This document shows positions 42,985-44,342 of a DNA stretch of 64,000 nt, one piece after another. The position numbers and the translations under genes were made by a program. The notes under the pieces were generated by a model that was not told the origin of the DNA, did not search any database, and saw only the letters and a program-made list of their open reading frames with translations. This stretch comes from Eledone cirrhosa (lineage: Eukaryota), in assembly GCA_964016885.1 (NCBI GenBank), contig OZ024741.1:300638001-300702000 (forward strand). The letters run 5' to 3'. Every line of letters starts with the position of its first letter. Position 1 is the stretch's first letter.

Positions 42985-44342
42985 ATAATGTATTTTTAAC
43001 TCTGATACTGGTTCAGTCTGGTTCAAACTGAATTGGTCTGTCCCAGTCATTCATTGAGCAACATCGGTGAAGTTGGCACCCTTAACTCACAGTTGGGTGC
43101 GGATGCATTCATGTATATATGTGTGTGTCCGCATGTATCTGTGTGTTTCTAAATATATTAATAGCTCCCTCTGGTCGAGCAATCTTTGAGGTGTGGGGAC
43201 AACTGGAAAGCTTCCATTACTCATACTTCTCGCCTTCTTCACTACCTCTTCTACGGCCTCGATATGAATACCCCCTCCGCCTCCGTGGTATTTTCTTCGT
43301 GGTTATAAGAGGCTTAGCTCTGTTTCTCGACCGTTATATCGCGTGACTATCTCCCCCTCCGCCTTTTGGGATTCTTTCTCACGTCGTGTAGACGCGTTCT
43401 TGAGACTAGTAAAACGAGGTATCCTCTTGATAAGTTGGCAGACCTCGCAAGGACTCTATATCTTTGATATATTGTTTTTGTTTATGCCACGAAACTACGT
43501 AGTCGAGGAATTTAGGAGCAGTTTAGGTATGATACATTTTATTACTAATTATATCTAAATGTTTCTTCTCTCTTCATAATGTATTTTTAACTCTGATACT
43601 GGTTCAGTCTGGTTCAAACTGAATTGGTCTGTCCCAGTCATTCATTGAGCAACATCGGTGAAGTTGGCACCCTTAACTCACAGTTGGGTGCGGATGCATT
43701 CATGTATATATGTGTGTGTCCGCATGTATCTGTGTGTTTCTAAATATATTAATAGCTCCCTCTGGTCGAGCAATCTTTGAGGTGTGGGGACAACTGGAAA
43801 GCTTCCATTACTCATACTTCTCGCCTTCTTCACTACCTCTTCTACGGCCTCGATATGAATACCCCCTCCGCCTCCGTGGTATTTTCTTCGTGGTTATAAG
43901 AGGCTTAGCTCTGTTTCTCGACCGTTATATCGCGTGACTATCTCCCCCTCCGCCTTTTGGGATTCTTTCTCACGTCGTGTAGACGCGTTCTTGAGACTAG
44001 TAAAATGAGGTATCCTCTTGATAAGTTGGCAGACCTCGCAAGGACTCTATATCTTTGATATATTGTTTTTGTTTATGCCACGAAACTACGTAGTCGAGGA
44101 ATTTAGGAGCAGTTTAGGTATGATACATTTTATTACTAATTATATCTAAATGTTTCTTCTCTCTTCATAATGTATTTTTAACTCTGATACTGGTTCAGTC
44201 TGGTTCAAACTGAATTGGTCTGTCCCAGTCATTCATTGAGCAACATCGGTGAAGTTGGCACCCTTAACTCACAGTTGGGTGCGGATGCATTCATGTATAT
44301 ATGTGTGTGTCCGCATGTATCTGTGTGTTTCTAAATATATTA
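42985..44342 (+). mobile_element. 591-bp tandem repeat (2.3 near-identical copies) with one HHR per unit; retrozyme-like
   Basis: ATAATGTATTTTTAACTCTG recurs at ~42985, 43576 and 44167. Flanked by (TA)n on both sides. Confidence 0.9.
43422..43509 (+). ncRNA. Type I hammerhead, U3-A8 variant with long stem II (second copy 44013-44100)
   Basis: TCCTC-TTGATAA-G.TGGCA...TGCCA-C-GAAA-CTACGTAG-TC-GAGGA. Palindromic stem III ACTACGTAGT. GUC sites after 43504 and 44095. Confidence 0.85.

Follow-up and report, generated by a model that had tools for sequence, protein, structure and literature searches.

A tandem array with a U3-A8 hammerhead motif between (TA)n tracts, a probable young non-LTR retrozyme

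The plus strand of the 64-kb window, by which we mean the whole stretch of DNA analysed, carries at 42985-44342 a tandem array of 2.30 head-to-tail copies of a 591-nt unit. We consider it probable that this array is a non-LTR retrozyme, young and high in copy number, which is itself non-coding and lives as a parasite on Penelope-like elements (PLEs), being moved by their machinery. The partial tandem, the hammerhead motif, the microsatellite target, the large family and the recurrent 3' end are all read from the sequence itself.

The tandem array and its hammerhead motif

Period-591 identity gave the exact bounds of the array (Table 1). The original prediction had described a 591-bp tandem of near-identical copies with a single C/T difference near 43415 and 44006, and both statements hold: copy A (42985-43751) and copy B (43576-44342) show a single mismatch over 767 aligned bases, which is exactly C at 43415 and T at 44006. 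A blastn comparison of the array returned matches at 100% and 99.8% plus a third piece of 176 nt, and found no further copy of the unit elsewhere in the 64-kb window. Tandem Repeats Finder overlooks the array because its longest period, 500, is below 591. Both array ends abut (TA)n, a feature not mentioned in the original prediction, so that a target-site duplication is unreadable here, and microsatellites flank the array on each side with none between the copies. The left junction lies 72 nt beyond the cleavage-site equivalent, at the foot of the equivalent of hairpin 43505-43575. Directly to the left of the array, 42828-42953 forms an imperfect palindrome with a decayed hammerhead-like core; this stretch and 42175-42367 are insertions nested with the array in one (TA)n region.

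Table 1. Features of the array and of its predicted RNAs, in window positions
Feature	Position	Strand	Remarks
Left target tract (TA)n/(CA)n	42950-42984	.
Unit copy 1	42985-43575	+	5' end is the left insertion junction
Unit copy 2	43576-44166	+	differs from copy 1 only at 44006/43415
Partial unit copy 3	44167-44342	+	176 nt; stops at the recurrent 3' end of the family
Right target tract (TA)n then (GA)n	44343-44521	.
Type I hammerhead 1	43422-43509	+	predicted cut 43504/43505
Type I hammerhead 2	44013-44100	+	identical to hammerhead 1; predicted cut 44095/44096
Hammerhead 1, stem I	43422-43426/43505-43509	+	5 bp, TCCTC/GAGGA
Hammerhead 1, core TTGATAA	43427-43433	+	U3-A8; second core at 44018
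Hammerhead 1, stem II domain	43434-43490	+	57 nt; 5 bp and one bulge, internal loop, distal hairpin
Hammerhead 1, GAAA	43491-43494	+
Hammerhead 1, stem III palindrome ACTACGTAGT	43494-43503	+	10 nt; followed by the cleavage triplet GTC
Predicted self-cleaved monomer or circular RNA	43505-44095	+	591 nt, between the two cut sites
Long hairpin tying up the stem I 3' strand in the monomer	43505-43575	+	repeated at 44096-44166
Candidate pseudoknot	43415-43447	+	leader 43415-43420 with stem II internal loop 43442-43447
AU-rich single-stranded linker	44330-44342	+	equivalent 43148-43160; predicted unpaired probability 0.90-1.0

Each full unit copy holds a complete type I hammerhead, open at stem I and with a Watson-Crick 3-8 pair. 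The TTGATAA core with its U3-A8 pair, the 10-nt palindromic stem III and the long stem II were all named in the original prediction; each was found in place in both copies with its pairs verified, and stem II closes with a G-C pair. The motif exceeds chance. A descriptor that allows any Watson-Crick 3-8 pair matched the unit once on the plus strand, whereas dinucleotide shuffles of the unit gave 3 matches in 5000, and 1 in 5000 at the observed stem lengths. We infer from this anatomy that the variant hammerhead would cleave after GUC. The expectation that a standard search would miss it was borne out, as the Rfam hammerhead models gave no match on 42985-44342 even at E = 10, and the Rfam search on either strand of the array returned no ribozyme, only microsatellite-driven microRNA matches. 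A metagenome scan with a 17-letter motif found 53 loci, none of them similar beyond 23 nt and none (0/53) with the downstream half of the hammerhead, so these are chance matches, and the scan yielded no relative of the unit for a covariation analysis.

Stops close all six frames of the unit and a tRNA search found no tRNA module in it, which rules out a coding function or a tRNA module; G+C of the predicted monomer (43505-44095) is 42%. A viroid-like replicating circular RNA with ribozymes in both polarities was also considered and set aside, the descriptor having given no hammerhead on the unit's minus strand.

Predicted folds of the circle and the dimer

The two predicted cuts delimit a monomer of 591 nt, the length originally proposed. 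Its circle is predicted to fold at -176.3 kcal/mol (z -6.5), with 0 of 60 shuffles as stable, and the minus-strand circle reaches z -1.45; this one-strand signal indicates selection on the ribozyme-bearing RNA. The signal is uneven along the unit, with z below -2 for 5 of 7 segments and z -0.58 for a 300-nt piece. Of 13 control pieces taken from other parts of the window, 2 come to z -3.5 to -4. The long hairpin that would tie up the stem I 3' strand has z -3.5 on the plus and 0.0 on the minus strand. The AU-rich linker sits just 3' of this hairpin.

Folding predicts that the ribozyme locks itself off in the circle. There the stem I 5' strand would form a short hairpin with its own leader, the probability of stem I is 0.00 and the active fold costs 8.8 kcal/mol. 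For the isolated ribozyme the active fold lies 1.6 kcal/mol above the local minimum, and for longer contexts 7-8 kcal/mol. Purely co-transcriptional activity of the monomer was likewise unsupported, with a stem I probability of 0.00 in all growing transcripts under equilibrium folding and a penalty of 7.4-8.7 kcal/mol. The dimer is predicted to favour a double-hammerhead fold (-209.4 kcal/mol) over two single folds (-197.7 kcal/mol). The double fold pairs the palindromes over 10 bp, so that stem III, which closes 3 bp in the monomer, would close 10 bp in the dimer, and it lies 4.8 kcal/mol above the dimer minimum.

The ribozyme may also use a pseudoknot between its leader and loop II, a post hoc candidate from one sequence. 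The contact comprises 6 bp with -8 to -10 kcal/mol as a duplex, and only one other site in the circle pairs equally well with the leader. The same leader could close the inactivating hairpin on the stem I 5' strand, in competition with the pseudoknot.

The family of the unit in public sequencing runs

Among the 24 public runs listed, four were aligned to the 591-nt monomer: the contig sets X1 (from organism A), X4 and X13 (from other organisms) and the raw Hi-C reads of organism G. We infer that organism A is the species of the window or a close relative. In X1, 1484 contigs align to the unit, with a summed depth of 1-4.7 x 10^5, depth not being copy number; 544 of them do so at 99% identity or more, 391 at 95-99, 251 at 90-95 and 298 below 90. 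If organism A is indeed the window's species or a relative, the family would be very large with a young majority. The claim that the array is very young and recently active stands for the family, given those 544 of 1484 contigs. The likeness of the two tandem copies alone gives no date for the insertion, because they share one template. With anatomy, chance control and family data taken together, the original proposal of a retrozyme with a U3-A8 hammerhead motif appears well founded.

The head-to-tail joint, 43575 to 42985, is present in three of the four aligned runs (X1, X4 and X13, from three studies), which makes the head-to-tail form a property of the family and not a peculiarity of the assembly. 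An assembly artefact, that is, a false duplication between microsatellites, would suit the near-perfect identity of the copies and their microsatellite flanks, and no aligned contig or read spans the locus, the monomer having been the only alignment target. We nevertheless regard an artefact as barely credible, considering that the same joint recurs in contigs from three runs, that the copies differ at one site and that other family members have the same 3' junction. The T of copy 2 at 44006 is what the family has in X1 (99%), so the C of copy 1 at 43415 is a new change. At three sites (43164, 43190 and 43436) both window copies depart together from the commonest letter of X1 and carry one that is rare or unseen there, which points to one template or to a local duplication.

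A 3' end at 43158-43160 in an AT-rich target is recurrent in the family. The X13 contig runs out at 43160 into (TA)10, which reproduces the end of the array at 44342, and eight X1 contigs exit the unit at 43158 into varied AT-rich repeats; no 5' end with equal support is found among the 14 loose-end rows listed of 109. The 3' end of the array lies 247 nt beyond the cut at 44095/44096, which means that the cDNA crossed the cleavage site twice and that the template was a ligated circle or an uncut multimer.

A fixed 3' end would also be left by 5'-truncated insertions if the unit were the pLTR of an autonomous PLE and the tandem had arisen by local DNA duplication, a route proposed in 10.64898/2026.07.22.740005. 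Such insertions fit the lower X1 depth at 43165-43264, and a long stem II with a bulge and a stem III palindrome are features known from PLEs; according to the same preprint, 24 of 57 Xenopus retrozyme families match known elements, with PLEs making up 21 of 22. We find this improbable. The head-to-tail joint in three runs, which closes a 591-nt loop in X4, argues against it, as do the closed six frames of the unit and a partial tandem with microsatellite on either side and none between copies. Among the 14 loose-end rows listed (of 109), moreover, no well-supported end enters a reading frame. A retrozyme remains our preferred reading.

Variant sites in the family were inspected next to the predicted folds. 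Five of 16 variant rows (43127-43139) were removed, as they fall in a low-complexity stretch with microsatellite reads and stay under 5% in X1. None of the 11 retained sites lies in the core or in hammerhead pairs, the only site within the ribozyme being the stem II bulge at 43436; since no variant touches the core, U3-A8 is the state of the family. In the circle fold, five of the 11 sites keep pairs, four are unpaired and two break pairs, one of the latter being the bulge position in the hammerhead fold. A permutation test for two or fewer pair-breaking changes was borderline (P = 0.059). G/A variant sites face U in the circle fold in 4 of 5 cases, compared with 34 of 118 G positions overall.

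The same variants bear on whether the unit descends from a retrozyme that is catalytically dead or nearly so and spreads via uncut multimeric RNA with the hammerhead as a passenger. The predicted fold is locked in long contexts, and PLE insertion in vitro was independent of cleavage (PMC11167929). U3-A8 showed low activity in one pairwise scan of a type III hammerhead, in which the 3-8 pair was rescued only by the G-C swap (PMC9901934), so that U3-A8 is possibly weak. We consider a dead ribozyme doubtful, although of the alternatives weighed here it is the one we take most seriously. The core is intact at every position, both sites of the 3-8 pair have changed in a compensatory way, the frequent variants spare the core and the stems, and several natural U3-A8 ribozymes exist, such covariants having earlier been active in vitro (PMC3088659).

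Part of the unit occurs in 20 of the 24 listed runs, under 17 organism codes from 16 studies, with at least half of its words in 12 of those 20; no RNA run is listed among them, which says nothing about expression. X4 assembles the unit as one closed 591-nt loop without flanks. The wide occurrence and the closed loop would agree with a unit that passes from one host to another, unrelated one, either by recent horizontal transfer or as a circular RNA that is itself transmissible, yet we judge such spread very unlikely. In X4 the unit is a single closed contig of 621 nt (591 + 30) at depth 7.8, below five of the six unrelated contigs listed from that run (depth 29-61 in five, 11 in one). X13 has an incomplete contig of 471 nt that carries a genomic (TA)n junction; its depth is 5.9, and the sum in X1 is 1-4.7 x 10^5. 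All differences in X4 (five) and X13 (four) are letters common in X1, and the lower share in X13 reflects incomplete coverage and not divergence. The Hi-C reads of organism G, from a sample other than G's unit-containing run, gave only five microsatellite-like partial matches in 1,938 million letters, and the unit is without a minus-strand ribozyme. The consensus letters, the lack of flanks and the patchy cover are what would be expected if a few parts in 100,000 had leaked from a genome in which the unit is present very many times. The near-identical copies in the runs of 16 other organisms, three of the 16 having been examined, thus look like low-level cross-contamination, which we rate well above horizontal spread. 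It would be just as surprising to us if a self-locking, pseudoknotted U3-A8 circle mobilised by the Hydra clade had recently passed near-unchanged into many unrelated animals as a transmissible genome-encoded circular RNA. The words of the unit in runs X4-X20, under 16 further organism codes, possibly a cross-contamination among public data sets, are a caution for horizontal-transfer screens based on shared words in public runs.

Penelope-like neighbours, proposed route and known systems

The window is rich in microsatellites and in PLEs. Pfam domains were found in few of the 12 window frames scanned (GIY-YIG in two, reverse transcriptase in one), and six-frame translation of the window gave DKT motifs at four places and CNC-x5-C motifs at five. 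Both motifs mark Hydra-clade PLEs, almost all families of which insert in (TA)n (PMC8557442). No similarity of the unit to any PLE end was detectable in the 64-kb window, and the PLE partner is therefore proposed from the (TA)n target and the neighbours. The fixed insertion end in (TA)n likewise points to PLEs as the mobilising machinery.

Canonical C3-G8 hammerheads occur in at least four further repeat families of the window. Tandem units of about 448 bp with short (TA)n-rich spacers lie at 61984-63820, 56942-57295 and 40061-40838; their family has a minimal hammerhead on the minus strand whose core is intact at 63614, 57109 and 40217, while the scan found none in three internal units, and 63647-63820 is an inverted piece. 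A 470-bp partial tandem at 55184-55873 repeats 220 nt at 99% and carries a canonical minimal hammerhead on the plus strand at 55543, the only hammerhead of the window scored by Rfam (HH9, 29.8 bits, sub-threshold). A Hydra-type PLE at 57371-61977 on the minus strand has a hammerhead in each terminal repeat (57469, 61598) and an inverted end; directly right of the array, at 44523-46800, stands a rearranged relative with a hammerhead at 44722. Another Hydra-type element is present in three copies that are 91-95% alike (7468-9364, 15406-17466 and 53314-54042), at the ends of which motif scans found no hammerhead. At 39208-39358, an inverted pair of hammerhead motifs (39222 minus, 39345 plus) with 47-nt stem II domains forms one long hairpin, and 19170-21102 is a different PLE (Pfam RVT_1 and GIY-YIG) with direct repeats of about 500 bp at 18448-18945 and 21763-22259. 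Some repeats of the window appear to resemble those of octopus genomes.

The most economical route to the array would begin with plus-strand transcription of a tandem copy. The U3-A8 hammerheads would cut after GUC, probably best as a palindrome-paired double hammerhead, to yield the 591-nt monomer; for comparison, 8 of 9 Xenopus retrozyme dimers failed to cleave in vitro (10.64898/2026.07.22.740005). The monomer would then be closed by an RtcB-type host ligase, a circularisation obtained in vitro for axolotl and mussel retrozymes (PMC7229834), and folding of the circle would lock the ribozyme off. Next, a PLE that targets (TA)n, most probably one of the Hydra clade, might supply its RT/GIY-YIG protein to nick a (TA)n tract and to begin cDNA synthesis within the RNA, where the AU-rich linker is unpaired (equivalent of 43158-43160). 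In the one in vitro system, the PLE protein likewise cleaves AT-rich DNA and initiates cDNA synthesis at an internal position of the RNA, and in the Anolis PLE assay priming required neither target homology nor ribozyme cleavage (PMC11167929). The enzyme would complete 2.3 rounds of the circle, or travel along a multimer that stayed uncut, before halting at a variable point, which would leave a partial tandem with a fixed 3' end.

How animal retrozymes reach new sites is still hypothetical; PMC7229834 names PLEs as candidates, and according to a 2020 review the repeats contain no motif that would indicate a partner (PMC7761336). A young family in which an internal 3' end recurs in (TA)n and partial tandems stem from one template offers a concrete substrate on which to test whether a PLE protein copies more than one unit by target-primed reverse transcription. 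The predicted switch, on in the dimer and off in the circle, can be tested by cheap biochemistry. As the U3-A8 core and the long stem II escape Rfam, retrozyme counts from canonical descriptors are probably too low.

Our search of the literature, which covered listings and the papers cited here, found no paper on a U3-A8 core in a tandem retrozyme, on a retrozyme with a fixed 3' end in microsatellites or on a cephalopod retrozyme. Lunse et al. 2017 on dimer-cleaving PLE hammerheads (cited in PMC6765202) may list tandem variants with U3-A8, and the supplements of the preprint 10.64898/2026.07.22.740005 and of PMC7229834 may list comparable families. The novelty attached to the unit at first was overstated, as the literature already has U3-A8 cores, stem III palindromes and lengths of as much as 972 bp. 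The U3-A8 core is a published natural variant, with about 1,300 such motifs in S. mansoni tied to Cercyon PLEs (PMC4209133). The length of the unit is unusual beside the animal retrozyme circles shown by experiment, which measure 170-400 nt (PMC7229834), but not beside the preprint's consensus lengths of 51-972 bp, with a mean of 650 bp in ray-finned fish and a PLE origin (10.64898/2026.07.22.740005).

By every feature open to a test here, the unit belongs to the animal non-LTR retrozymes. Like those described by Cervera and de la Pena 2020 (PMC7229834) and Li, Clavereau and Pollet 2026 (10.64898/2026.07.22.740005), it is a non-coding tandem with a type I hammerhead per full unit, G+C below 50%, a self-paired predicted circle, no LTR and co-occurring PLEs, and its length falls within the range of the preprint. 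It differs from them in the U3-A8 core, in the 57-nt stem II domain and in exceeding the circles of 170-400 nt. Its ribozyme is predicted to be blocked in the circle, whereas most animal retrozyme circles leave the ribozyme free; blocked ribozymes are reported for plant retrozymes, viroids and some mussel circles (PMC7229834). The unit ends in a microsatellite, with a recurrent 3' end in place of a visible target-site duplication.

The hammerhead variants in PLE terminal repeats (Cervera and de la Pena 2014, PMC4209133) resemble the unit in the U3-A8 covariation (Cercyon), in a 5-bp helix I and in being dimer-capable, and the Penelope hammerhead of D. virilis in the same paper shares the bulged helix II and the palindromic helix III. 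Those variants are of minimal size and for the most part stand alone or beside a reading frame, whereas the motif of the unit lies in a frameless tandem and can close a stem III of 3 bp as a monomer or 10 bp as a dimer. Hydra-clade PLEs (Craig et al. 2021, PMC8557442) share the (TA)n target and a hammerhead near the 3' end; unlike the unit, they are autonomous and have a canonical C3-G8 pair, and comparison within the window showed no sequence resemblance to the unit. In the pseudoknotted hammerheads of Perreault et al. 2011 (PMC3088659), the stem I and stem II regions make a paired contact, which that paper predicts for about 40% of its representatives. The position of the contact in the unit suits this, but it is predicted from one sequence and competes with the inactivating hairpin. 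Each odd feature of the unit thus has a precedent, and their combination with the insertion signature makes it a useful test case and not a surprise.
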